A stretch of 14,088 bases of DNA from a virus (lineage: Duplodnaviria; Heunggongvirae; Uroviricota; Caudoviricetes). Of this stretch, positions 1 to 12,532 are shown piece after piece. Location: the IMG/VR virus record IMGVR_UViG_2695420814_000008; one strand, 5' to 3'. Each line of letters starts with the position of its first letter. Positions within the stretch are counted from its first letter, which is position 1. A program made the translations under genes and the position numbers. Below the pieces are notes generated by a model. The model searched no databases. It was not told the DNA's origin and saw only the letters and a program-made list of their open reading frames with translations.

Positions 1-79
1 GCCTTCAGGGAAAAATATCATCAGATGGCTGCTTAAAAAAAGAACAAATGGTAGTGTCCGCTATTGCCAGTACACCTCA
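1..79 (+). mobile_element. Right end of an IS3-family (IS600-like) element, including the last 11 codons and stop of its orfB (1..36); the element presumably continues left of the window
   Basis: Positions 1-79 match 5868-5946 (3' end of the transposase ORF 5085..5903 plus terminal sequence ending ...CACCTCA); sequence diverges at 81. RC of the end is TGAGGTG..., the TG...CA terminus typical of the IS3 family. Confidence 0.8.
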
Positions 80-206
80 GGGTATAAGGGGTTATGGCCA
101 CCGGACTACCAAACGGCTGCCAGCCCTCTTTCAGTTTATGTGTCAGCTTTTCCGCAAGATCTGACGGCGGCGCCGCCCTGACAACATCATAGTGTTTAAA
201 TGCCAT
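80..206 (-). pseudogene. 5' part of a small phage-associated gene (MAFKHYDVVRAAPPSDLAEKLTHKLKEGWQPFGSPVAITPY...) truncated by the IS600-like end; resembles small DUF1737-type prophage proteins (from memory)
   Basis: ATG at 206 preceded by GGTGGAAAG (SD-like); reading frame runs straight into the IS end at 79/80 (track ORF 33..221), so the native C-terminus is lost. Confidence 0.3.
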
Positions 207-466
207 GGTTCTTTCCACCATCTGAAAAATAATTCTTTAAAATACCTGACATGTAATACAGAAAAAACACAAAACCATACCTTAAATAAAAACCTGATTA
301 TCAAGCAGATATGCATGGATAAACTACAAGACGAGATATAAACCACCCTGCATTTAAATAAACAATAAACAACATCAGAAAAATAATTCTGCTCTATGGT
401 TTACATTCAAAAATATCATTTATACTTTTCAGAACATCACCAGCAAGGCATAAACAAGGAAACTAA

Positions 467-802
467 ATGAAGTGGATTGTGATTGATACAGTTATCCAGC
501 CATCATGCGGAATATCTTTTTCAGTCATATGGAGTAAAATAAAATTAATAATCTGGTATCAATCGGATGCTTTCTTACCTCCTGAAAGTATATTTACACT
601 GACTCACACAGGCATCATGCTCAATAACAAAGTGCTACCTGTAACCATTTACAACGTAGTACCATTCAATAAAACATTCTGGAATTCAATCAAAAATAGC
701 CAGGAATGCCCTACAAATACAGATAACGTATTGAATGAATGCTTTAATAACCGTTGCACTCTGCAAATATGTCCTTATGGACTAAAACAACAAAGTCCAT
801 AA
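467..802 (+). CDS. Hypothetical 111-aa protein in AT-rich DNA, C-terminal third Cys-rich; no family recognised
   Basis: ORF track; AAGGAAA about 7 nt upstream of ATG; long open frame in a block visibly AT-rich where stops are frequent by chance; followed by a strong hairpin at 837-858. Confidence 0.35.
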
Positions 803-836
803 GGAGTTTACTCACATCTGACAAAATCAATATAAA

Positions 837-858
837 CAGCCCCTCCGGAGAGGGGCTG
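837..858 (-). terminator. Perfect 9-bp GC-rich stem-loop (CAGCCCCTC-CGGA-GAGGGGCTG); U-tract only on the minus-strand reading
   Basis: Inverted repeat read directly; on the minus strand it is followed by TTTATATTGATTTT, on the plus strand it lacks a T-run. Confidence 0.4.
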
Positions 859-1249
859 GAGAGTGGCGCTATGTGCCATTGCATGGTGCCGGGTGCCTCC
901 CGGTGAATTCAGTACCAGCACCTGAATCCGCGATTATCCCATATACCTACTCGCTGATTGCCCCTCCGCACAGGGGGATTCACCATGCCAGTTTCTTTTA
1001 ACAAACTCCCCGCAAACCAGACAACAGTCAACCGCCTGAATTGTGAAGTATTTAAAAATTTCTCCCGCTAACTGATACCCGGCTAACAGTCTGGCGTTTT
1101 CTTTTTCAGCAACGGGAAAGCAACAACCACCACACCCGCCACCAGCACACCGTCAGCCAGCACTGACATTATCCGGCTGCTGCAATGCCATTCACAAAAA
1201 CAGTAAGCAATCACTTTTTACCGTAACAGGTGATAATCCAGATATGTAT

Positions 1250-1603
1250 CTACCCCAGATGAGTAATCCGAAGTTCATCCATACCACAGGTCCTGGCTAT
1301 TCTGTTGTACTCCTGAACAAGAGCAAATAATTCTGAATTAGCAACCATGAACTCATCGCAAACCCTCTGTATAGCATCACTATTCAGAATAATAACGTCT
1401 CTTCCCGAAAGACGATCAGGAGTACAGAACAAAACTGTCAAACGGCTGAAGGCCTTTGCTCGTGCTGCATTGACTATATCAATACGCTGCCTAAGGATGA
1501 AACACCCCGACGCCTCATCAATATTCACTCTACCCACACCATATGAATGATAAATATTTAATGCTGAAAAAACCATTAGACCGTATAACAAACACTCAAT
1601 CAA
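1250..1603 (-). CDS. Hypothetical protein (117 aa from TTG at 1603; 108 aa from first ATG at 1576); not recognised
   Basis: ORF track; lies just downstream (minus strand) of the phage tRNA pair in the position where lambdoid phages carry moron genes; no convincing SD, and an overlapping plus-strand ORF (1347..1550) exists, so coding strand is uncertain. Confidence 0.3.
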   Translation of the reverse strand: MIECLLYGLMVFSALNIYHSYGVGRVNIDEASGCFILRQRIDIVNAARAKAFSRLTVLFCTPDRLSGRDVIILNSDAIQRVCDEFMVANSELFALVQEYNRIARTCGMDELRITHLG

Positions 1604-1713
1604 TACTTAACAGAACTTTTATTTTTGACAAACATAAAATATTTTCAACAATATCCTGAGCCAGGTATATTTCAGTATAAGGCTCTGCCGGAAGGAATCT
1701 GGAAGAATGAATA

Positions 1714-1790
1714 TGGCGCGCTGTACTGGATTCGAACCAGTGACCGATTGCTTAGAAGGCAATTGCTCTGTCCGGCTGAGCTAACAACGC
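1714..1790 (-). tRNA. tRNA-Arg, anticodon UCU (phage-type, argN-like)
   Basis: RC reads GCGTTGTTAGCTCAGCCGGACAGAGCAATTGCCTTCTAAGCAATCGGTCACTGGTTCGAATCCAGTACAGCGCGCCA: 7-bp acceptor stem (one G-U), GCTCAG D-arm, anticodon stem ATTGC/GCAAT with loop CTTCTAA, GGTTCGAATCC T-arm, encoded CCA. Confidence 0.85.
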
Positions 1791-1890
1791 TGAATACCGA
1801 TAATGGACCGCCATCGGGGACCCGCCCCCGCACCAACAACCCTGTTATCGTGTCGTCTGCTCTTCCTGATAAGCTAATGGCGGTTTGTGA

Positions 1891-1966
1891 TGGTGGCCCT
1901 TGCTGGATTTGAACCAGCGACCTGGCGATTATGAGTCGCTCGCTCTCACCACTGAGCTAAAGGGCC
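1891..1966 (-). tRNA. tRNA with CAU anticodon, most similar to tRNA-Ile2 (ileX/ileZ type, lysidine-modified) rather than tRNA-Met
   Basis: RC reads GGCCCTTTAGCTCAGTGGTGAGAGCGAGCGACTCATAATCGCCAGGTCGCTGGTTCAAATCCAGCAAGGGCCACCA: 7-bp acceptor stem, anticodon loop CTCATAA, T-arm GGTTCAAATCC, encoded CCA; overall close to remembered E. coli ileX. Confidence 0.8.
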
Positions 1967-2007
1967 GGGAGCAGAATAATAACGGTCCGTAATTAATTCC
2001 GCAATAA

Positions 2008-2034
2008 AAAACCCGCTCGGCGGCGGGTTGTAGA
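2008..2034 (-). terminator. Rho-independent terminator about 35 nt downstream of the Q-like gene (candidate tR'-type site or plain operon terminator)
   Basis: Plus strand AATAAAAAA-AACCCGC-TCGGCG-GCGGGTT; on the minus strand a 7-bp GC-rich stem is followed by UUUUUUAUU. Confidence 0.6.
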
Positions 2035-2068
2035 AACTCTTCTAACGTCAGGCATAAAACGCCCATAG

Positions 2069-2923
2069 TTATGACGAATTTACCACAGATTCCGGAAAAA
2101 TCAACCTAGTTACCTTTTTTAACTGCCGCTCAGCCCATGCTTCTTCAATATCAAACCGAGTCACCAGCGCATCATAGAATTTCTTAACTGTTTTTTCCCA
2201 TGACGCGCGTGTTATCTGGTTTGTCACCTCGCATATAGCATTAAATGCCTCCGTTGATGGTAGTCTTTCATAGCCACGACCACCACAACGCTGGCAGTCT
2301 CTGATAACAGGCATACCACGTTTTACCGACTCTTCACGATGAATGGCGACACCACGCCCACGGCAATCCTTACAGGCGGTGGAAACCTCACCCTTTCCGC
2401 CACACTCCGGACAGGCAACTTTTACCACCTCCCTGACTTTTTTCCATTCTTCCCAGTAAGACGGATACACACCTTTCGTACACTTTGCCCATACCGGCGG
2501 CTTACCATCCGGATACTGGACCTTGTTTGTAAAAACTACGCTTTCAATAAATTTTTCCCCATAGCAACAAGGGCACTGCTTTTTACTCGCTGCGCTGCGG
2601 GCATAATCCTCAAAAGCGTACGAAGCCATAATGCGCATCACTACCGGTTTTATTTCTGCCGGAAGTTTTCTCAACGCCGCCACACGATCGCACCGACTGA
2701 GTGCATAATCTGCCAGTAATTCTGTTGCCCGCGCCCTGTCATTCATACTGATGCCCATTTTCCCCAGGAACGCAGAAAACCCCATCTCAGCCCGATTCTG
2801 TGTCATGCCCTGCGCGGCCATCACATCAGTGATACTCAGCGCATCTTTTGACGTTGAGGCCGATGCATCGGTCAGGCAAGGGGATTTTGGGGAGTAGTAT
2901 TTCGGTAAATCTTCCAGTTTCAT
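2069..2923 (-). CDS. Lambdoid late-region regulator, putative Q-like antiterminator, carrying four DnaJ-type zinc-finger repeats (CPCCYGEKF, CPECGGKGE, CKDCRGRGV, CQRCGGRGY)
   Basis: 284-aa ORF; start ATG overlaps the rusA stop (ATGA); immediately downstream of rusA and upstream of a terminator and phage tRNAs, the canonical Q slot. Product assignment is by position plus motifs, not by recognised sequence identity. Confidence 0.55.
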   Translation of the reverse strand: MKLEDLPKYYSPKSPCLTDASASTSKDALSITDVMAAQGMTQNRAEMGFSAFLGKMGISMNDRARATELLADYALSRCDRVAALRKLPAEIKPVVMRIMASYAFEDYARSAASKKQCPCCYGEKFIESVVFTNKVQYPDGKPPVWAKCTKGVYPSYWEEWKKVREVVKVACPECGGKGEVSTACKDCRGRGVAIHREESVKRGMPVIRDCQRCGGRGYERLPSTEAFNAICEVTNQITRASWEKTVKKFYDALVTRFDIEEAWAERQLKKVTRLIFPESVVNSS

Positions 2924-3294
2924 TTTTTGACCTGCTCTTCATGCATTATGGGGTAAATCTTCACCCCCAGACGTCCACCAGATACTGGCTGACCACGAAC
3001 GATATTGATTTCATCAAACTGCTCATCGTCCATTAACACTCCCGCATGTGTCAGTGCATCCAGTGGTGCTTTCAGGATATTGTCCAGGTCACGACGGCGC
3101 TTATCCGGTGGCTCTGCAATAATCTTTATCGCCAGTCTTCCGGACAGGCTTAATTTCAGTCGCTGCTGACGGACAATAAGCGCCACATCCCGGCGATAAC
3201 GCTCACCGGCTTTTGATACAAAATATGTGTTGTCACGACGTCGCCAGTAAGTATTCACCGTCGGCGGATAAGGTAAAATAAACTCATGGCGCAT
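2920..3294 (-). CDS. rusA: RusA-family Holliday-junction resolvase (prophage crossover junction endodeoxyribonuclease)
   Basis: 124-aa ORF with ...PPDKRRRDLDNILKAPLDALTHAGVLMDDEQ..., matching the RusA catalytic-core motif (D-RRRDLDN) as remembered from E. coli RusA; typical nin-region location. Confidence 0.85.
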   Translation of the reverse strand: MRHEFILPYPPTVNTYWRRRDNTYFVSKAGERYRRDVALIVRQQRLKLSLSGRLAIKIIAEPPDKRRRDLDNILKAPLDALTHAGVLMDDEQFDEINIVRGQPVSGGRLGVKIYPIMHEEQVKK

Positions 3295-3551
3295 CAGCGC
3301 AGCACCTCCTGCACCAGTTTTTCAAACTTTCCGACTCTGGTTTCCAGCTCTGCCACACAGTCCACCAGCTCATCTACTGCTTTCTGTGCGCGATGCTTCG
3401 CCTGCATCAGTTCCCGAAGCGCGGGTACCATATCTTTACGGATAGCGTCTTTTGTTATGCCCGTTTTTTCGAGTTGTTCAGCATGACGCAGCATTTCCTG
3501 CGCGTGTTTACGCAATTGTTCAGGGGTAAAAGTCATTGTCTGGTTGTTCAA
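3294..3551 (-). CDS. Small hypothetical nin-region protein (85 aa from TTG at 3551; alternative ATG at 3536), predicted helical
   Basis: ORF track; stop overlaps rusA start by 1 nt (TGATG); GGAG 9 nt upstream of the TTG. Confidence 0.5.
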   Translation of the reverse strand: MNNQTMTFTPEQLRKHAQEMLRHAEQLEKTGITKDAIRKDMVPALRELMQAKHRAQKAVDELVDCVAELETRVGKFEKLVQEVLR

Positions 3552-3587
3552 AAGAAACGCTCCATCTTACTGCTGTCAGTTCGTTTA

Positions 3588-3671
3588 TTACTGTATCTGC
3601 GCGGATTGCCGGGCTTCATGGGAGTGGAAAGCACCCGTGCACTTTCCTGGTCCACAGGCAGAAAATGTCCG
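3588..3671 (-). pseudogene. 3' remnant (last 27 codons, ...RTFSACGPGKCTGAFHSHEARQSAQIQ*) of an upstream phage gene cut by the IS2 left end
   Basis: The open frame runs from the IS2 boundary at 3671/3672 to a stop at 3588; the track ORF 3588..3806 is this frame fused to IS2 sequence. Confidence 0.3.
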
Positions 3672-3826
3672 TAGACTGGCCCCCTGAATCTCCAGACAAC
3701 CAGTATCACTTAAATAAGTGATAGTCTTAATACTAGTTTTTAGACTAGTCATTGGAGTACAGATGATTGATGTCTTAGGGCCGGAGAAACGCAGACGGCG
3801 TACCACACAGGAAAAGATCGCAATTG
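3672..3826 (+). mobile_element. IS2 5' fragment: left terminal repeat (TAGACTGGCCCCCTGAATCTCCAGACAACC...) plus first 18 codons of orfA, then abruptly joined to an IS21-family end
   Basis: Matches remembered IS2 left end; 3773-3827 equal 5948-6002 of the longer IS2 copy; junction at 3826/3827 (±1, one shared base). Confidence 0.85.
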
Positions 3827-3885
3827 TGTCAACGCCACGATGTTTGACCGTTATTTGCCATTTTCATGCCCGCTAAATACTTTCG

Positions 3886-4890
<1,005 letters not shown>

Positions 4891-5946
4891 AGAAAAGGGC
4901 TCGGTACTCCTGGTTCCCGCACGGTGGCTGAACTGGAATCTGAAATTCTGCAACTGCGTAAGGCGTTAAATGAAGCTCGCCTTGAGCGAGATATATTAAA
5001 AAAAGCAACAGCGTATTTTGCACAGGAGTCGCTGAAAAATACGCGTTAATCGAACAATGGCGACAACAATTTCCCATTGAAGCGATGTGTCAGGTATTTG
5101 GTGTATCCAGGAGCGGTTATTACAACTGGGTACAGCATGAACCCTCAGACAGAAAACAAAGTGATGAGCGGCTAAAACTGGAGATTAAGGTGGCACATAT
5201 CCGCACTCGCGAAACATATGGAACCCGGCGGCTCCAGACGGAGCTGGCAGAGAATGGCATCATCGTTGGTCGTGACCGACTGGCACGTCTTCGTAAGGAG
5301 CTAAGGCTACGCTGTAAGCAGAAACGCAAGTTCAGAGCGACTACGAACTCGAACCACAATCTGCCAGTTGCGCCAAATCTGCTGAACCAGACGTTCGCTC
5401 CTACAGCACCAAATCAGGTCTGGGTGGCGGACCTGACGTATGTTGCCACACAGGAGGGATGGTTGTACCTCGCTGGCATCAAAGATGTTTATACGTGCGA
5501 AATTGTCGGCTACGCCATGGGAGAGCGCATGACAAAAGAGCTGACAGGTAAAGCCCTGTTTATGGCGCTCAGGAGCCAGCGCCCACCTGCCGGGCTAATC
5601 CACCACTCTGATCGAGGTTCACAGTACTGCGCATACGATTACCGGGTCATACAGGAGCAGTCTGGTCTGAAAACATCAATGTCGCGTAAAGGTAACTGTT
5701 ACGACAACGCTCCGATGGAAAGCTTCTGGGGAACGCTGAAAAATGAGAGCCTGAGCCACTATCGTTTTAATAACCGGGATGAAGCCATCTCAGTAATACG
5801 GGAATACATTGAGATTTTCTACAATCGTCAGCGTCGTCACTCTCGTCTGGGGAATATCTCCCCGGCAGCCTTCAGGGAAAAATATCATCAGATGGCTGCT
5901 TAAAAAAAGAACAAATGGTAGTGTCCGCTATTGCCAGTACACCTCA
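4891..5946 (+). mobile_element. IS3-family (IS600-like) element lacking roughly its first 200 bp: orfA 3' part (4891..5049), slippery A-run, orfB, right end
   Basis: orfA frame reads ...RKGLGTPGSRTVAELESEILQLRKALNEARLERDILKKATAYFAQESLKNTR*; orfB product has the DDE-integrase core; 3' end identical to 1..79. Confidence 0.8.
5085..5903 (+). CDS. IS3-family orfB DDE transposase domain (probably made as an OrfAB fusion by -1 frameshift at the A-run 4998-5005)
   Basis: 272-aa ORF with ...WVADLTYV..., HSDRGSQY, ...[14 protein letters not shown]... (D, D, E core); orfB frame is open back across the A7G slippery run and is -1 relative to orfA. Confidence 0.85.
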
Positions 5947-5947
5947 G

Positions 5948-6313
5948 ATGATTGATGTCTTAGGGCCGGAGAAACGCAGACGGCGTACCACACAGGAAAA
6001 GATCGCAATTGTTCAGCAGAGCTTTGAACCGGGGATGACGGTCTCCCTCGTTGCCCGGCAACATGGTGTAGCAGCCAGCCAGTTATTTCTCTGGCGTAAG
6101 CAATACCAGGAAGGAAGTCTTACTGCTGTCGCCGCCGGAGAACAGGTTGTTCCTGCCTCTGAACTTGCTGCCGCCATGAAGCAGATTAAAGAACTCCAGC
6201 GCCTGCTCGGCAAGAAAACGATGGAAAATGAACTCCTCAAAGAAGCCGTTGAATATGGACGGGCAAAAAAGTGGATAGCGCACGCGCCCTTATTGCCCGG
6301 GGATGGGGAGTAA
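5948..6313 (+). CDS. insC: IS2 OrfA (InsC), HTH transposase N-terminal protein
   Basis: [41 protein letters not shown]...; the track ORF starts at an upstream in-frame ATG (5915) that lies in IS600-like sequence; slippery A AAA AAG at 6265-6271. Confidence 0.9.
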
Positions 6314-7176
6314 GCTTAGTCAGCCGTTGTCTCCGGGTGTCGCGTGCGCAGTTGCACGTCATTCTCAGACGAACCGATGACTGGATGGATGGCCGCCGCA
6401 GTCGTCACACTGATGATACGGATGTGCTTCTCCGTATACACCATGTTATCGGAGAGCTGCCCACGTATGGTTATCGTCGGGTATGGGCGCTGCTTCGCAG
6501 ACAGGCAGAACTTGATGGTATGCCTGCGATCAATGCCAAACGTGTTTACCGGATCATGCGCCAGAATGCGCTGTTGCTTGAGCGAAAACCTGCTGTACCG
6601 CCATCGAAACGGGCACATACAGGCAGAGTGGCCGTGAAAGAAAGCAATCAGCGATGGTGCTCTGACGGGTTCGAGTTCTGCTGTGATAACGGAGAGAGAC
6701 TGCGTGTCACGTTCGCGCTGGACTGCTGTGATCGTGAGGCACTGCACTGGGCGGTGACTACCGGCGGCTTCAACAGTGAAACAGTACAGGACGTCATGCT
6801 GGGAGCGGTGGAACGCCGCTTCGGCAACGATCTTCCGTCGTCTCCAGTGGAGTGGCTGACGGATAATGGTTCATGCTACCGGGCTAATGAAACACGCCAG
6901 TTCGCCCGGATGTTGGGACTTGAACCGAAGAACACGGCGGTGCGGAGTCCGGAGAGTAACGGAATAGCAGAGAGCTTCGTGAAAACGATAAAGCGTGACT
7001 ACATCAGTATCATGCCCAAACCAGACGGGTTAACGGCAGCAAAGAACCTTGCAGAGGCGTTCGAGCATTATAACGAATGGCATCCGCATAGTGCGCTGGG
7101 TTATCGCTCGCCACGGGAATATCTGCGGCAGCGGGCTTGTAATGGGTTAAGTGATAACAGATGTCTGGAAATATAG
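6271..7176 (+). CDS. insD: IS2 OrfB (InsD), DDE transposase catalytic protein, 301 aa
   Basis: ORF track; -1 frame relative to insC; sequence matches remembered InsD. Confidence 0.9.
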
Positions 7177-7187
7177 GGGCAAATCCA

Positions 7188-8752
<1,565 letters not shown>

Positions 8753-8811
8753 CGAAAGTATTTAGCGGGCATGAAAATGGCAAATAACGGTCAAACATCG
8801 TGGCGTTGACA

Positions 8812-9218
8812 ACAGTACAGGACGTCATGCTGGGAGCGGTGGAACGCCGCTTCGGCAACGATCTTCCGTCGTCTCCAGTGGAGTGGCTGACGGATAATGG
8901 TTCATGCTACCGGGCTAATGAAACACGCCAGTTCGCCCGGATGTTGGGACTTGAACCGAAGAACACGGCGGTGCGGAGTCCGGAGAGTAACGGAATAGCA
9001 GAGAGCTTCGTGAAAACGATAAAGCGTGACTACATCAGTATCATGCCCAAACCAGACGGGTTAACGGCAGCAAAGAACCTTGCAGAGGCGTTCGAGCATT
9101 ATAACGAATGGCATCCGCATAGTGCGCTGGGTTATCGCTCGCCACGGGAATATCTGCGGCAGCGGGCTTGTAATGGGTTAAGTGATAACAGATGTCTGGA
9201 AATATAGGGGCAAATCCA
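8812..9218 (+). mobile_element. insD: IS2 3' fragment (last ~407 bp: InsD C-terminal 132 codons plus right terminal repeat), a second copy of 6781-7187
   Basis: Direct identity to 6781-7187 by inspection, including the terminal GGGGCAAATCCA; the track ORF 8800..9207 is this insD fragment with a spurious start. Confidence 0.85.
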
Positions 9219-9498: not shown

Positions 9499-10584
9499 CT
9501 ACTGATACTGGATGCTTGAATGTTTCATCCCTGCTGCGGAAAAGGGCAATATCCAGGGCCAGATATATTCACCGTTCATATTTCTGCATTTCTGTACAAT
9601 TTCCTCAGAAAGTGTCTTGTCAATTCTTTTCCACAGGTGCTCCTGCTGTCTTAAAATACTTTCGCATATTTCGAAATCATCTTCCTGAATCAGCATTTCG
9701 GCGCATTTAATGATTTCTGATCGTTCATGCAGCACGGAGGAATGGTTATAGAGCCAGTTTACAAACAGCAATGCTTCCGGATATTGTCCCCATAATGGTG
9801 AGTATGTTGCATAGTAATCTTCTGCCGTATCCAGAGAGCCGGAGAAGTCATGCCACACAGCAAGTGGAAATGGATGCAGATTTCCGCACAGCATTTCTGC
9901 GATGTAAGTGTTTGTGGCAAAGCCATGGCGAAAAGCTGTGGCGGCCTTAACATGTTCCCCGTTCAGAAAATGCAGGAGACCGAGTTCATACCAGTAAGGT
10001 GAAAATTCATCAGCATGCTCTTTCAGTACACTGAAGGCTCGCTCATGATCGCCGGTGCGTAACAGCTCTGAACCCAACAACCAGCGAGCCCCCTGATTAT
10101 CTTCAGGATTGTATGCCAGTATTTTATCAGTGAGCATAACCGCATCCTGATGGCGCTGTAAGTGCACATTTGCGAGAATTGCTGCATAAAGCGCGCGCAG
10201 ATAAGGCCGGTTTTCGGGATGCATCCAGATTATTTCACCACAGAAACTTTCCGGGATGATACGATTACCTGCCGCCAGTCCTTTAAGAGAGGCGTTCAGT
10301 GCCTTACGCGGGGCATTCTGTTCCAGAAATGCATATGCCAGATGAGCGTGTATATCAATAAAGTCCGGCTCCCGTTGAGCAAGGCGTCGGAGTTTGTTGA
10401 TGTAACTCGTCTCGCTGATTTCATCAGCGTCGTATGCATCAAGCACTTCTTCAAACTCCCCCAGCAATGGGCCAAACCAGGTATCCGGAAATACGAAATA
10501 ACCCTTGTTATCGTGCACTTCAAAGCATAATCTATCGTTCATTTCTGAGCCTGTAAAACATGTGGTGATATAGTCTGAGAGCAT
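9499..10584 (-). CDS. Hypothetical island cargo protein, ~361 aa from first ATG (374 aa if the GTG at 10623 is used; another ATG at 10542); alpha-helical, possibly TPR-like; no catalytic motif recognised
   Basis: Long ORF in track (9499..10623); same orientation as and immediately downstream of int; flanked on both sides by AT-rich DNA. No start candidate has a good SD, so the start is uncertain. Confidence 0.6.
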   Translation of the reverse strand: MLSDYITTCFTGSEMNDRLCFEVHDNKGYFVFPDTWFGPLLGEFEEVLDAYDADEISETSYINKLRRLAQREPDFIDIHAHLAYAFLEQNAPRKALNASLKGLAAGNRIIPESFCGEIIWMHPENRPYLRALYAAILANVHLQRHQDAVMLTDKILAYNPEDNQGARWLLGSELLRTGDHERAFSVLKEHADEFSPYWYELGLLHFLNGEHVKAATAFRHGFATNTYIAEMLCGNLHPFPLAVWHDFSGSLDTAEDYYATYSPLWGQYPEALLFVNWLYNHSSVLHERSEIIKCAEMLIQEDDFEICESILRQQEHLWKRIDKTLSEEIVQKCRNMNGEYIWPWILPFSAAGMKHSSIQYQ

Positions 10585-10871
10585 AAAAGTTGAGATTCTG
10601 TGTATCAAGTCCTGTCTTGGCACCGAATGAATATTGCTTACGAAGCCCCTTCATGCTTTCCTTGAGAACAATAATTTTATCTTTATGTGAATCTCATTTT
10701 TTATAATGATGTCAGATGATTGAAATGCTAAATTATATCTGAATCAACTTTTCCTTTGCTAAAGGTATCGAAATAACTGCAAGGCTGTATTTTGTAATTG
10801 CCAATTTAAAAATGTCAATTTGTTTTTAATTATGTTTTTGTAATAAGTTTGAAGACGCAAAAAAAATAATA

Positions 10872-10908
10872 TAATAACAAAAATCCTCCAGCCTTGTAGG
10901 CCAGAGGA
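10872..10908 (-). terminator. Probable int terminator: imperfect 10-bp stem-loop followed by a U-run on the minus strand
   Basis: Plus strand TAATAACAAAAA-TCCTCCAGCC-TTGTA-GGCCAGAGGA; 8 of 10 stem pairs form; about 46 nt downstream of the int stop. Confidence 0.5.
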
Positions 10909-10953
10909 TAAAATACTTAATTGAGGAAAATATCAGGGAAAAGTATTTCTGAC

Positions 10954-12138
10954 TTAACTTTCCCGGCTGGAGAGTGAATCAATGTAATCAGCGTACCATT
11001 GCATCATTTCACGGCGGCCATCGAGATACAGGGCATGATTATAGGTACCCCTGATGGAATTTTTATCCACATGAGCTAACTGCATTTCAATCCAGGCGGA
11101 ATTAAAGCCTTGTTCATGCAGAATTGTACTCATGGTGTGTCTGAAACCGTGCCCTGTGAGTCTTCCCTTATATCCAAGTAATTCAATTACTTGGTTAATG
11201 CTTTCCTTACTAATTGGTTTGCGGGGATCATTTCTACCGATAAAGACTAGGGGATGATGTTTTGAGATTGGTTCAAGCTGCTTAAATAGCATAATGACCT
11301 GCTCAGAGAGCGGCACAATATGAGGTCGCTTCATCTTCATTACTTCTGCCGGGATCTCCCACAATTTTGTCTCAAAATCGATATCTTCCCAGCGTGCAAA
11401 ACGCAGTTCTTGTGTTCGTACGCCGGTTAACATAATGATCTGAGTAGCTGTCTTAGTGATTATACTTCCGGTATAACCCGCCAGATCGTTGAGGAAGTGG
11501 GGAAGTTCATTAGCAGTAAGAAAGGGAAAATGTACTTTTTTCGGTGTAGCTAAAGCACTGGCAAGATCGGGGGCTGGGTTATAGTCTGCCCGGCCAGTAA
11601 CAATTGCATAGCGGAACACCTCACCACAGCGCTGGCGGACCTTGCGCATTTTCTCCAGAGCTCCACGTTTTTCCATTTTACGCAGTGCTTCCAGTAACTC
11701 CATTGGTTTGATTTCGGCAATAGGGCGCTTGCCAATGTAGGGAAAAATGTCTTTTTCAAAGGTATCAATGATTTCATCACGATAGCGTAATGACCACCGA
11801 TCAGCTTTTGACTGGTGCCATTCGCGAGCAATAGCCTCGAACGTATTTTTCAGACTCATTTGCTGCGCGATTTTTTCTTCCTTTTTTGCCTCCCCTGGAT
11901 CGCCTCCAGCAGCGAGGAGTTTCCTGGCTTCACTGCGTTTCTCGCGAGCATCGGCTAGCGTTACATCGGGGTATACGCCAATAGAAAGCATCTTTTCTTT
12001 ACCAGCAAAGCGGTACTTCATGCGCCAGTATTTAGAACCATTAGTGTTAATCAGTAGATACATACCGCCGCCATCAGCAAGCTTATAGGGTTTGTCTTTG
12101 GGTTTTGCGGTTTTCACTTTGATATCGGTTAATGCCAT
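10954..12138 (-). CDS. int: P4-family tyrosine integrase (394 aa), apparently intact
   Basis: N-terminus MALTDIKVKTAKPKDKPYKL... typical of tRNA-associated P4-like integrases; catalytic-region motifs ...TGVRTQELRFARWEDID..., GHGFRHTMST (HxxR), ...RGTYNHALY (Tyr); strong SD GGAGG 5 nt upstream of ATG; sits beside the 3' end of selC. Confidence 0.9.
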   Translation of the reverse strand: MALTDIKVKTAKPKDKPYKLADGGGMYLLINTNGSKYWRMKYRFAGKEKMLSIGVYPDVTLADAREKRSEARKLLAAGGDPGEAKKEEKIAQQMSLKNTFEAIAREWHQSKADRWSLRYRDEIIDTFEKDIFPYIGKRPIAEIKPMELLEALRKMEKRGALEKMRKVRQRCGEVFRYAIVTGRADYNPAPDLASALATPKKVHFPFLTANELPHFLNDLAGYTGSIITKTATQIIMLTGVRTQELRFARWEDIDFETKLWEIPAEVMKMKRPHIVPLSEQVIMLFKQLEPISKHHPLVFIGRNDPRKPISKESINQVIELLGYKGRLTGHGFRHTMSTILHEQGFNSAWIEMQLAHVDKNSIRGTYNHALYLDGRREMMQWYADYIDSLSSRES

Positions 12139-12437
12139 GACATCCTCCGGCTTTTGATGAATTCATGTTCCTGAGGGGGATTTCTGCCAGTAACTAACCT
12201 GATACCCCCAATACACCCCTTGTATAACAAAGATATTGTTAAAAGCCGTTGTTATGTATCACATTTTTCCTATTATGGGGGTGCTTGTATTTCAATAGGA
12301 AATAACACCCCCTAAAGTACCCCCAAAAGAAACTTGATATGGGGTGAAGTAGGTTGACCTCAGGATACAAATAAATACTGATATACAAGGGATTAGAAGA
12401 GATTTATTGACATTGGGAGAGTTCAGAAGAGGTAAAC
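12139..12437. promoter_or_regulatory. int-selC spacer: attachment-site arm and int promoter region with repeated G5/C5-containing decamers in both orientations
   Basis: TATGGGGGTG-like motif at 12284-12293 and 12346-12355 (+), and as reverse complement at 12213-12220, 12222-12229, 12305-12313, 12319-12325; the pair at 12289-12313 forms GGGGTG...CACCCC around an AT-rich spacer. Confidence 0.4.
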
Positions 12438-12532
12438 TGGCGGAAGATCACAGGAGTCGAACCTGCCCGGGACCGCTGGCGGCCCCAACTGGATTTGAAG
12501 TCCAGCCGCCTCACCGGAGACGACGATCTTCC
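12438..12532 (-). tRNA. selC: tRNA-Sec (selenocysteine, anticodon UCA), 95 nt including encoded CCA
   Basis: RC reads GGAAGATCGTCGTCTCCGGTGAGGCGGCTGGACTTCAAATCCAGTTGGGGCCGCCAGCGGTCCCGGGCAGGTTCGACTCCTGTGATCTTCCGCCA, the E. coli selC sequence as remembered, with the long extra arm and 8-bp acceptor stem typical of tRNA-Sec. Confidence 0.95.

Follow-up and report, generated by a model that had tools for sequence, protein, structure and literature searches.

The window analysed here is a 14,088-nt stretch of DNA from a Caudoviricetes record (IMG/VR IMGVR_UViG_2695420814_000008), whose first part carries, between the end of an insertion sequence and a tRNA gene, iraL, an STnc100-family sRNA gene, a DUF3927-encoding gene and a further gene designated here as orf92 (Table 1). 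All of the features listed by an earlier sequence-only reading of this region, i.e. two ORFs of opposite orientation, a GC-rich hairpin, an AT-rich block and an IS600-like end, were found to be present. The hairpin lies within an Rfam match (E=1.5e-29) and both ORFs possess conserved homologues, and these features are therefore not due to chance. The 43-aa DUF3927 gene and the membership of the hairpin in an sRNA gene had been missed by that reading.

Table 1. Features identified between the IS end and the tRNA-Arg gene of the window
Feature	Position (nt)	Strand	Basis
IS3-family (IS600-like) element end, cutting the esterase gene	1-80		100% identical to window 5868-5947
DUF1737/sialate-esterase (nanS-p-like) N-terminal fragment, IS-cut	81-221	-	Pfam DUF1737, 57 bits
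Cassette B (iraL), inserted in the tRNA-STnc100-esterase backbone	208-837		L010 comparison
iraL promoter, AT-rich, with 33-nt leader; transcription start 434	230-466	+	GC 0.287; 5'RACE match
iraL, IraM-family RssB anti-adaptor, Shigella allele, L74S relative to CFT073	467-802	+	NCBIfam NF007393
STnc100-family sRNA gene	828-1017	-	Rfam RF02076
Intrinsic terminator of STnc100 (predicted hairpin)	837-858	-	Minus-strand terminator scan
42-aa ORF antisense to STnc100; RefSeq (PGAP) pseudogene fragment	873-1001	+	Wholly within sRNA gene
Cassette A (orf92 and DUF3927), inserted between tRNA-Arg and the sRNA block	1059-1700		L010 comparison
DUF3927 small hydrophobic protein, 43 aa	1083-1214	-	Pfam PF13064
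orf92, 92-codon conserved core, GTG start; uncharacterised prophage protein	1250-1528	-	dN/dS, phrog_2873
Candidate N-terminal extension or upstream peptide of orf92	1529-1603	-	In frame in window and CFT073
tRNA-Arg (UCU), region boundary	1714-1790	-	ARAGORN, Rfam

The IS600-like end is real, since the first 80 nt are identical to a sequence that follows an IS3-family transposase ORF (5085-5903) elsewhere in the window. Homology with other prophages begins at position 77, and the DUF1737/esterase gene is truncated at approximately position 80 by the IS3-family end, the remaining fragment being 88.6% identical to the 5' start of the SASA-family esterase gene of an O157-type prophage (L010). 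The Q gene and both tRNAs are encoded on the minus strand, so that the plus-strand ORF at 467-802 indeed runs opposite to the late direction. The proposal that this ORF is located inside a late operon holds only historically, as the late genes have since been removed by an IS, leaving a 3.7-kb, IS-flanked phage remnant within an IS-rich island adjoining selC.

iraL and the convergent STnc100 sRNA

The plus-strand ORF encodes a 111-aa protein with five cysteines from an ATG start. In contrast to the statement that none of the products resembled anything that could be named, this protein corresponds to the experimentally characterised IraL. As a member of the iraL/iraM/rssC anti-adaptor family, it matched NF007393 with 162 bits (cut-off 121) across residues 1-110, and its coding sequence is identical to that of iraL of CFT073 (c1429; Hryckowian et al. 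2014, PMC4045071) at 334 of 336 nt (99.4%), where the published operational definition of iraL requires at least 95% nucleotide identity to the CFT073 gene across the whole CDS. At the protein level 110 of 111 residues are identical, the sole difference being S74 in the window and L74 in CFT073. The exact protein represents the common Shigella allele, for which the database name is IraM [Shigella].

Comparison with the structure of K-12 IraM (b1160) in complex with RssB (PDB 8TWD; E=6e-31) revealed that the two proteins, which are 61% identical, share the family and PmrD-like fold region, the four C-terminal cysteines and the RssB-contact residues I4, I6, C14, F18, W22, K26, W30 and I42, with conservative changes at two further contact positions (T13S and L75I, from IraM to the window IraL). 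The L74S change adjoins the latter contact position (L75 in IraM). The allele standard in Shigella is the one with S74, and deleting iraL from Shigella sonnei produces a phenotype.

The AT-rich block noted earlier was confirmed, with a GC content of 0.287 across 230-466 and 0.345 across 467-802, compared with 0.49-0.55 in the flanks. The 5'RACE sequence published for CFT073 iraL (PMC4045071) matches window positions 434-465 at 31 of 32 bases, and the region from -100 to +33 is identical at 131 of 133 positions (98.5%), while at least 96% identity over the -100 region is demanded of an iraL-type promoter. We read TATACT at 421-426 as the probable -10 element. In CFT073, iraL possesses a sigma-70 promoter of its own and a mapped transcription start, and IraL binds RssB and lengthens the half-life of RpoS; deletion of iraL in S. 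sonnei or CFT073 lowers sigma-S levels in log phase (PMC4045071). From the near-identity of the two proteins we infer the same mechanism for the window copy: iraL would be transcribed from its own sigma-70 promoter at position 434, and IraL would bind the adaptor RssB such that RpoS is not passed to ClpXP and builds up during exponential growth. The promoter and transcription start are the same as those of CFT073, and so are the neighbours (DUF1737 fragment, STnc100, DUF3927, orf92, tRNAs and Q); taken together, the 1.9-kb module is 98% identical. The CFT073 module, however, resides in an intact prophage at potB and includes two tRNA-Arg genes, whereas that of the window is located in the remnant adjoining selC and includes one.

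Downstream of iraL and convergent with it, the STnc100 gene matched RF02076 over the full model (1-206), scoring 132.4 bits against a gathering threshold of 47. Conservation continues beyond the gene to position 1058 (838-1058 being 98.6% identical in L010), the published STnc_100 qPCR primers find exact matches, and the block is present in 3409 of 5426 Escherichia coli genomes. STnc100 copies are transcribed, one having been verified by Northern analysis in EDL933, and a copy located downstream of stx2B in EHEC is overlapped by EcOnc27, an sRNA bound by Hfq (PMC5331693, PMC12711010). The family is described as related to PasD sRNAs and is overlapped by EcOnc27 in EPEC/EHEC prophages. In prophages the family is known from the interval that follows Q/tRNA (or stx2B) and precedes a sialate esterase gene, and the window copy has the same place; the window differs from the usual map in that iraL lies between the sRNA and the esterase, and orf92 with DUF3927 between the tRNAs and the sRNA.

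The hairpin, described earlier as GC-rich and perfect, consists of a 9-bp stem with seven G-C pairs and a 4-nt loop. Rather than being a separate element, it represents the terminal stem of the RF02076 model, and it leads into a T-run (TTTATATTGATTTTG) only when read on the minus strand. The STnc100-family sRNA (from approximately 1017 to 828) is thus predicted to end at a rho-independent terminator. No convincing -35/-10 pair was identified in the 41 conserved nucleotides upstream of the Rfam model start (1018-1058), and the 5' end of the sRNA may be generated by processing. RNA duplex prediction between STnc100 and the translation-initiation regions of iraL, orf92 and DUF3927 yielded no duplexes better than those of shuffled controls. 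The 42-aa ORF antisense to the sRNA did not match any Pfam, NCBIfam or PHROG entry, and is probably not a gene.

Two alternative assignments were considered for this part of the locus. The NCBI protein name IraM, together with a PhoP-box-like TGTTTA-N5-TATTTA sequence at 355-371 (63-79 nt upstream of the transcription start), could indicate an orthologue of K-12 iraM, induced through PhoP upon Mg2+ starvation rather than expressed in log phase; induction by Mg2+ starvation is described for IraM, and expression in log phase for IraL (PMC10844676, PMC4045071). We consider such orthology highly improbable: identity to CFT073 IraL is 99%, far above that to K-12 IraM, and only the CDS aligns with the K-12 iraM locus, the promoter and flanks of which are unrelated to those of iraL in the window. 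The PhoP-box candidate was rejected, as it is a single one-mismatch site and at least one such match occurred in 37 of 200 shuffled sequences. An ancestral pairing of iraM with the sRNA was also rejected, since no STnc100 gene lies near K-12 iraM and the flanks of the two loci are unrelated. It is also unlikely, in our estimation, that the hairpin serves mainly as the iraL terminator or as a bidirectional terminator common to both convergent genes. Its position 34 nt after the iraL stop codon, its symmetric G+C-rich stem and an A-run preceding it on the plus strand are compatible with such a role; however, the plus strand continues with GGAGAGTGGCGC and lacks a U-tract, the terminator scan yielded a match on the minus strand alone, and the stem belongs to the STnc100 covariance model. 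Moreover, the stem is retained together with the sRNA block in prophages lacking iraL, where homology ends at position 838. An iraL gene convergent with an STnc100 gene that carries its own terminator is the preferred assignment.

orf92 and the adjoining DUF3927 gene

The minus-strand ORF at 1250-1603 is present as described (117 aa), remaining open up to a TTG codon at position 1603. Its coding strand had been left undecided by the sequence-only reading, which had taken a lack of homologues with conserved reading frames as grounds for dismissing the ORF. Such homologues were found: within the 92-codon core starting at GTG, the frame is intact, without stop codons, in three lineages that are 67-72% identical at the nucleotide level over the coding core, with dN/dS values of 0.26-0.27 and twice as many changes at third positions as at positions 1 or 2, which argues that the ORF is real. 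The antisense frame exhibits equally low dN/dS values (0.25-0.39) because its third positions are shared with the coding frame, so that the strand was called from stop codons, the boundaries of the alignments and distant homologous proteins. By these comparative sequence data the question is settled in favour of the minus strand, and orf92 is a real gene under purifying selection.

The orf92 product matched phrog_2873, represented by hypothetical proteins of the WP_001017777.1 type, across all 92 residues (1-92; E=5.6e-58). The family is narrow, enterobacterial and prophage-borne, and has no function attached to it. Profile searches identified distant relatives of 91-106 aa and 21-40% identity in Citrobacter and elsewhere, and a narrower family alignment returned four loci related to orf92. 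At all loci examined, the gene has the Q/tRNA module on one side and the lysis genes on the other and is co-oriented with both; in CFT073, L007 and the window it comes just after prophage tRNAs. In phage mEp460_ev081, Q is followed by the pair of orf92 and DUF3927; this was the only phage retrieved when phage genomes were searched by tblastn with distant members of the orf92 family. Approximately one-fifth of complete E. coli genomes carry orf92, which RefSeq annotation leaves out in almost all cases. The one PGAP-annotated homologue found, in ETEC6333, is 63% identical to orf92, whereas the gene of the window lineage is usually unannotated.

The implicit RefSeq/PGAP view would be that the ORF is a chance open frame in a non-coding spacer. 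Nearly all of the 1183 E. coli genomes carrying this stretch have no PGAP feature at the position, the ORF does not match Pfam or NCBIfam, and in the window lineage the GTG codon is preceded by a weak Shine-Dalgarno sequence. The comparative data nevertheless disfavour this view strongly, to the point that it seems scarcely tenable: the frame has withstood 28-33% nucleotide divergence over the coding core, sequence conservation begins and ends precisely at the start and stop codons, relatives of the same length are found down to the lowest identities recovered by profile search, an AGGAG Shine-Dalgarno sequence precedes the gene in the L002 lineage, and the phrog_2873 match covers the entire product. 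A different matter is the start site, as the true product could be a 108-118-aa form initiating at 1603 or 1576, with a hydrophobic N-terminus and membrane association. In the window, CFT073, L007 and L009 no stop codon interrupts the frame up to 1603, gene callers return products of 108-118 aa, and the L003 lineage shares the first 13 codons, with a TCA to AGC change that keeps Ser and four synonymous changes among them. In L003, however, the upstream peptide is read in another frame, the TGA stop codon of which overlaps the GTG (GTGA overlap), while the L002 upstream sequence is unrelated and its AGGAG lies just before the GTG. Furthermore, distant relatives of 91-95 aa start at the aligned position, the hydrophobic run comprises only ~12 residues and no Shine-Dalgarno sequence was seen before the TTG. 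The longer form thus appears doubtful, and the 92-codon form starting at GTG is retained here.

An AlphaFold2 model of the 92-residue product depicted a two-helix hairpin (pLDDT 84.6), and orf92 is thus predicted to encode a soluble helix-loop-helix hairpin protein, which, we infer, may act by binding another macromolecule. Foldseek searches against PDB and BFVD retrieved generic helical hairpins only, with no match at E≤0.001, and Pfam searches with nine members of the family produced scattered single-member noise and no match to PF10073. The Caulobacter nucleoid-associated protein GapR (DUF2312; UPF0335) is of similar size, and its first helix and the following loop align with orf92 across 48 columns with the motif xLxxRIExxxxE+AxxxxxLxxVY...G.DV+IL. 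The scores of this comparison are below threshold (E=0.054 in an hmmsearch against PDB; 38.9% probability in hhalign with the GapR family alignment), and the second half is predicted to form one long helix in orf92, compared with two in GapR. The likeness is accordingly a lead rather than a family assignment.

The DUF3927 ORF matched PF13064 with 95.6 bits (gathering score 25) as well as phrog_1470, and PGAP calls the gene in CFT073 and strain 042. A search of the literature on DUF3927 and TciB yielded nothing usable. Located upstream of the sRNA on the late strand and separated by 35 nt, orf92 and the DUF3927 gene are probably co-transcribed. Since the phage DNA has been reduced to an IS-flanked remnant, late-promoter-driven expression of the pair is not to be assumed, and promoter-like sites for either gene were found at consensus level only.

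Accessory cassettes in the stx position

The region from 81 to 1700 is very probably a mosaic of accessory ('moron') modules (iraL; STnc100; orf92 with DUF3927) left over from a lambdoid prophage. These modules occupy the interval from the Q/tRNA module to the esterase and lysis genes, the position of stx in Stx phages. The reference for this comparison was L010, in which tRNA-Arg, STnc100 and the esterase gene follow one another. Where the window carries cassette A, L010 has 23 nt only and no orf92 or DUF3927 gene; cassette B takes the place of a 232-nt L010 segment located after the sRNA terminator and before the start of the esterase gene. Both cassettes are discrete and sharp-edged, one on each side of the sRNA, and the flanking blocks are 88.6-98.6% identical to L010.

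The interpretation of the region as modular prophage cargo is supported by these two additional cassettes, each of which is discrete and missing from a collinear relative. The expectation of an independently expressed, low-GC gene on the opposite strand holds for iraL, which combines its own sigma-70 promoter and mapped start (PMC4045071) with a deviant base composition (GC 0.29-0.35, compared with ~0.49). A PADLOC search with orf92, IraL and DUF3927 did not identify any match to anti-phage defence systems. Most of the contents of the region, namely iraL, the STnc100 sRNA and DUF3927, were already known. As for orf92, it is conceivable, if rather improbable, that it is the first member of an unstudied family of helical-hairpin proteins, small and soluble and encoded in the late-transcribed stx slot, whose target would be host DNA or a host protein, perhaps through GapR-like DNA binding, and which would thereby alter host physiology or superinfection. 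The same low-probability reading would place this family in enterobacterial lambdoid prophages, paired in E. coli with the DUF3927 membrane peptide, and would have it escape notice because routine annotation passes over it.

The eye-catching AT-rich, Cys-rich ORF on the opposite strand is thus resolved as IraL, which is known to regulate RpoS stability and shows enrichment in Shigella and UPEC, and the hairpin as part of a widespread prophage sRNA. RefSeq systematically omits orf92, which is under purifying selection, yet annotates a pseudogene antisense to the sRNA. The resulting map depicts cargo cassettes stacked on both sides of STnc100 in the stx slot. At this Shigella-type locus, IS elements surround the 3.7 kb of phage DNA in which the iraL module persists, and the retention of the module in such a decayed remnant fits selection for iraL after prophage decay.

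An anti-adapter gene in the AT-rich block

The 111-aa plus-strand ORF (467–802), whose product the sequence-only reading could not recognise, is iraL. The deduced protein matched NCBIfam NF007393 ('anti-adapter protein IraM') with 162 bits against a cut-off of 121, and is labelled IraM by RefSeq in hundreds of E. coli genomes. IraL is known from the potB prophage of UPEC CFT073, where it was described as a paralogue of IraM; it binds RssB, by which RpoS is stabilised in exponential phase, and deletion of iraL in S. sonnei results in less sigma-S in log phase (PMC4045071). Compared with CFT073, 334 of 336 nt of the coding sequence, 131 of 133 nt of the −100 to +33 region and 110 of 111 aa were identical, the protein carrying S74 in the window and L74 in CFT073. 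The published 5′RACE sequence ACATCACCAGCAAGGCATAAACAAGGAAACCA (PMC4045071) mapped to 434–465 with one mismatch, indicative of a 33-nt leader. The exact protein sequence corresponds to 'MULTISPECIES: IraM [Shigella]' (S. sonnei and S. flexneri), found on at least 999 contigs. Codon 74 (686–688) encodes Ser in the Shigella allele and Leu in both CFT073 IraL and K-12 IraM, and this residue adjoins an RssB-contact position (L75 in IraM).

IraL and K-12 IraM share 61% identity, a likeness confined to the CDS, whereas the promoter and downstream DNA of the K-12 iraM locus are unrelated to those of iraL. Alignment with the IraM–RssB crystal structure (8TWD) covered IraL residues 1–78 (E 6e-31), with conservation of the RssB-contact residues listed for IraM. 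The four C-terminal cysteines of IraL (residues 81–102, window 707–772; spacing C-x10-C-x4-C-x4-C) are conserved in K-12 IraM; this tail, which was taken off IraM for the crystal structure, could represent a metal-binding knuckle. As IraL is cytoplasmic, the signal-peptide and disulfide prediction proposed earlier is inapplicable. The sole one-mismatch match in the window to the PhoP box (TGTTTA-N5-TATTTA), at 355–371 on the minus strand and 63–79 nt upstream of the iraL transcription start, was not significant (37 of 200 shuffles).

The STnc100 sRNA and its terminator

The hairpin at 837–858 was confirmed, with a perfect 9-bp G+C-rich stem and a 4-nt loop, but had been misattributed: it is the terminal stem of the STnc100 sRNA model (RF02076), which matched the minus strand at full length (132.4 bits, gathering score 47; E 1.5e-29). 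A T-run accompanies the hairpin on the minus strand only, and the hairpin is the sRNA terminator. Published qPCR primers for STnc_100 matched the window exactly. According to the literature, Stx2 phages carry STnc100 ~75 nt beyond stx2B, and the sRNA has been related to the PasD sRNAs of EPEC; eleven copies have been reported in EDL933, transcribed and with one Northern-verified, and in EHEC the Hfq-bound sRNA EcOnc27 overlaps a copy downstream of stx2B. Of 5426 complete E. coli genomes, 3409 contained the STnc100 block, at up to 13 places each.

A 42-aa plus-strand ORF (873–1001), positioned wholly antisense within the STnc100 gene, is treated by RefSeq/PGAP as a pseudogene fragment ('hypothetical protein'), had no family match in Pfam, NCBIfam or PHROG, and is regarded as spurious. 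The same fragment was found antisense to STnc100 in an O157-type prophage (L010) and two further loci (L001 and L004).

Coding evidence for orf92

Both ORFs were present as first listed, the one at 1250–1603 comprising 117 aa from TTG, and its previously undecided coding strand is minus. Diverged copies were identified in ETEC6333 (annotated as WP_001017777.1) and isolate 07-4299, with 71–76% identity in BLAST matches and 67–72% over the 279-nt coding core, and both retain a 92-codon minus-strand ORF from GTG (orf92). In this frame, pairwise dN/dS was 0.26–0.27, internal stops were absent from all three lineages, and third-position changes outnumbered those at positions 1 or 2 about twofold. 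In the antisense frame sharing third positions the ratio was similar, but stops break this frame in two of the three lineages; the remaining frames displayed ratios near 1. Nucleotide similarity extends from the GTG (window 1528) to the stop codon. The ORF is a real minus-strand gene, with a 92-aa core that is certain and a possible N-terminal extension.

In the window lineage no stop interrupts the frame as far as 1603, and the first 13 codons of the extended frame appear conserved with the 07-4299 lineage. The 25 codons at 1529–1603 resemble this lineage at the amino-acid level (MI[ED]C..Y.L.VFS), including a TCA/AGC Ser–Ser change. In 07-4299, the upstream peptide is in a different frame, its end overlapping the GTG start codon (GTGA), whereas in the window it is fused in frame; in ETEC6333, the upstream sequence is unrelated and AGGAG directly precedes the GTG. 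This segment may encode either an N-terminus that varies or a peptide upstream of orf92.

The orf92 protein matched phrog_2873, a profile with no function attached (E 5.6e-58). When 1.84 billion representatives were searched exhaustively with a profile, only 21 clusters emerged, which include relatives of 91–106 aa with 21–40% identity and conserved R23, P37, N64, Y74 and N75. AlphaFold, using a three-sequence alignment, predicted a two-helix hairpin (H3–35 and H50–81; pLDDT 84.6), for which Foldseek against PDB and BFVD retrieved generic coiled-coil hairpins only; PADLOC returned nothing. Helix 1 and the loop are marginally similar to GapR/DUF2312 (E 0.054; hhalign 39%), a likeness that is unproven. 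In every locus examined (CFT073, strain 042, E. coli L007, Citrobacter braakii L005 and phage mEp460_ev081), orf92 is prophage-borne, with the Q/tRNA module on one side, the lysis genes on the other and all in the same orientation; it directly follows the tRNAs in CFT073, L007 and the window. Of the 1183 genomes that carry the stretch, nearly all lack a PGAP annotation for it; the selected orf92 is skipped, yet the fragment antisense to STnc100 is annotated.

Cassette organisation and late transcription

Features of the window and block comparison with the O157-type prophage L010
Feature	Position	Strand	Evidence or comparison
DUF1737 fragment	33–221	−	
iraL	467–802	+	
STnc100	828–1017	−	
DUF3927 protein, 43 aa	1083–1214	−	Pfam 95.6 bits; phrog_1470
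orf92 core	1250–1528	−	
tRNA-Arg (UCU)	1714–1790	−	
tRNA-Ile2 (CAU)	1891–1966	−	
Q antiterminator	2069–2923	−	Pfam Antiterm, 184 bits
374-aa ORF	9499–10623	−	no NCBIfam match
P4-type integrase, beside selC	10954–12138	−	
tRNA-Sec (selC)	12438–12532	−	
Block: tRNA-Arg	1800–1701		matches L010
Block: orf92 + DUF3927	1700–1059		extra cassette; 23 nt in L010
Block: sRNA	1058–838		98.6% identical to L010
Block: iraL cassette	837–208		in place of 232 nt of L010
Block: esterase start	207–77		88.6% identical to L010, then IS

The moron interpretation was right in kind. The low GC content (0.29 at 230–466 and 0.35 at 467–802, compared with ~0.5 in the flanks) was confirmed, as was the orientation of iraL opposite to the late genes, the minus-strand Q, tRNA and DUF1737 genes defining the late direction. 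Relative to L010, with its bare order of tRNA-Arg, STnc100 and esterase, two cassettes are extra. The region thus consists of separately acquired cassettes stacked about a conserved sRNA, at the site that stx occupies in Stx phages. The DUF3927 gene lies 35 nt downstream of orf92, and the pair occurs without iraL right after Q in mEp460_ev081 (4001–4446), the only orf92-carrying record among 50,697 phage genomes; the pair thus travels independently of iraL.

The tRNA-Ile2 gene is called tRNA-Met (CAU) by ARAGORN, and its homologue tRNA-Ile by RefSeq (lysidine type, like the Stx-phage gene ileZ). CFT073 carries two tRNA-Arg genes, the window a single one. About 40 nt past the Q stop codon and ahead of the tRNAs, a strong hairpin that resembles a terminator and has a T-run (2010–2029, minus strand) gives the arrangement expected of a lambdoid pR′/tR′ late-control leader; its sole Rfam match was a weak 'Trp_leader' look-alike.

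The IS600-like end is real: positions 1–80 exactly copy 5868–5947, the terminus of an IS3-family element ending at 5947, and cut short the DUF1737/esterase gene. Past 3.7 kb lies an IS graveyard of IS21-like, IS2 and IS3-family pieces, a dense mosaic spanning 3760–9207 with fully complementary 1068-nt arms (3827–4894 and 7744–8811) carrying IS21-like istB, and IS2 tnpA/tnpB accompanied by duplication of a 300-nt piece. Of the phage, a remnant is left (81 to ~3760), the late genes that once lay downstream being gone. At the far end, where the integrase adjoins selC, 9499–12532 looks like a selC-inserted island.

Work by others on near-identical sequence has shown that a sigma-70 promoter of its own drives iraL, and that IraL bound to RssB blocks RpoS delivery to ClpXP, raising RpoS in log phase. 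Given 99% identity and the phenotype of the S. sonnei deletion, the iraL of the window would be expected to act in the same way. STnc100 transcription, convergent with iraL, would halt at the hairpin; in an intact prophage, polymerase modified by Q would pass it, running antisense over iraL and on to the esterase and lysis genes; orf92 and DUF3927 would share one late-strand transcript. Most of the region is already known, as iraL and the STnc100 terminator; the exception is orf92, a conserved small gene that annotation generally passes over.
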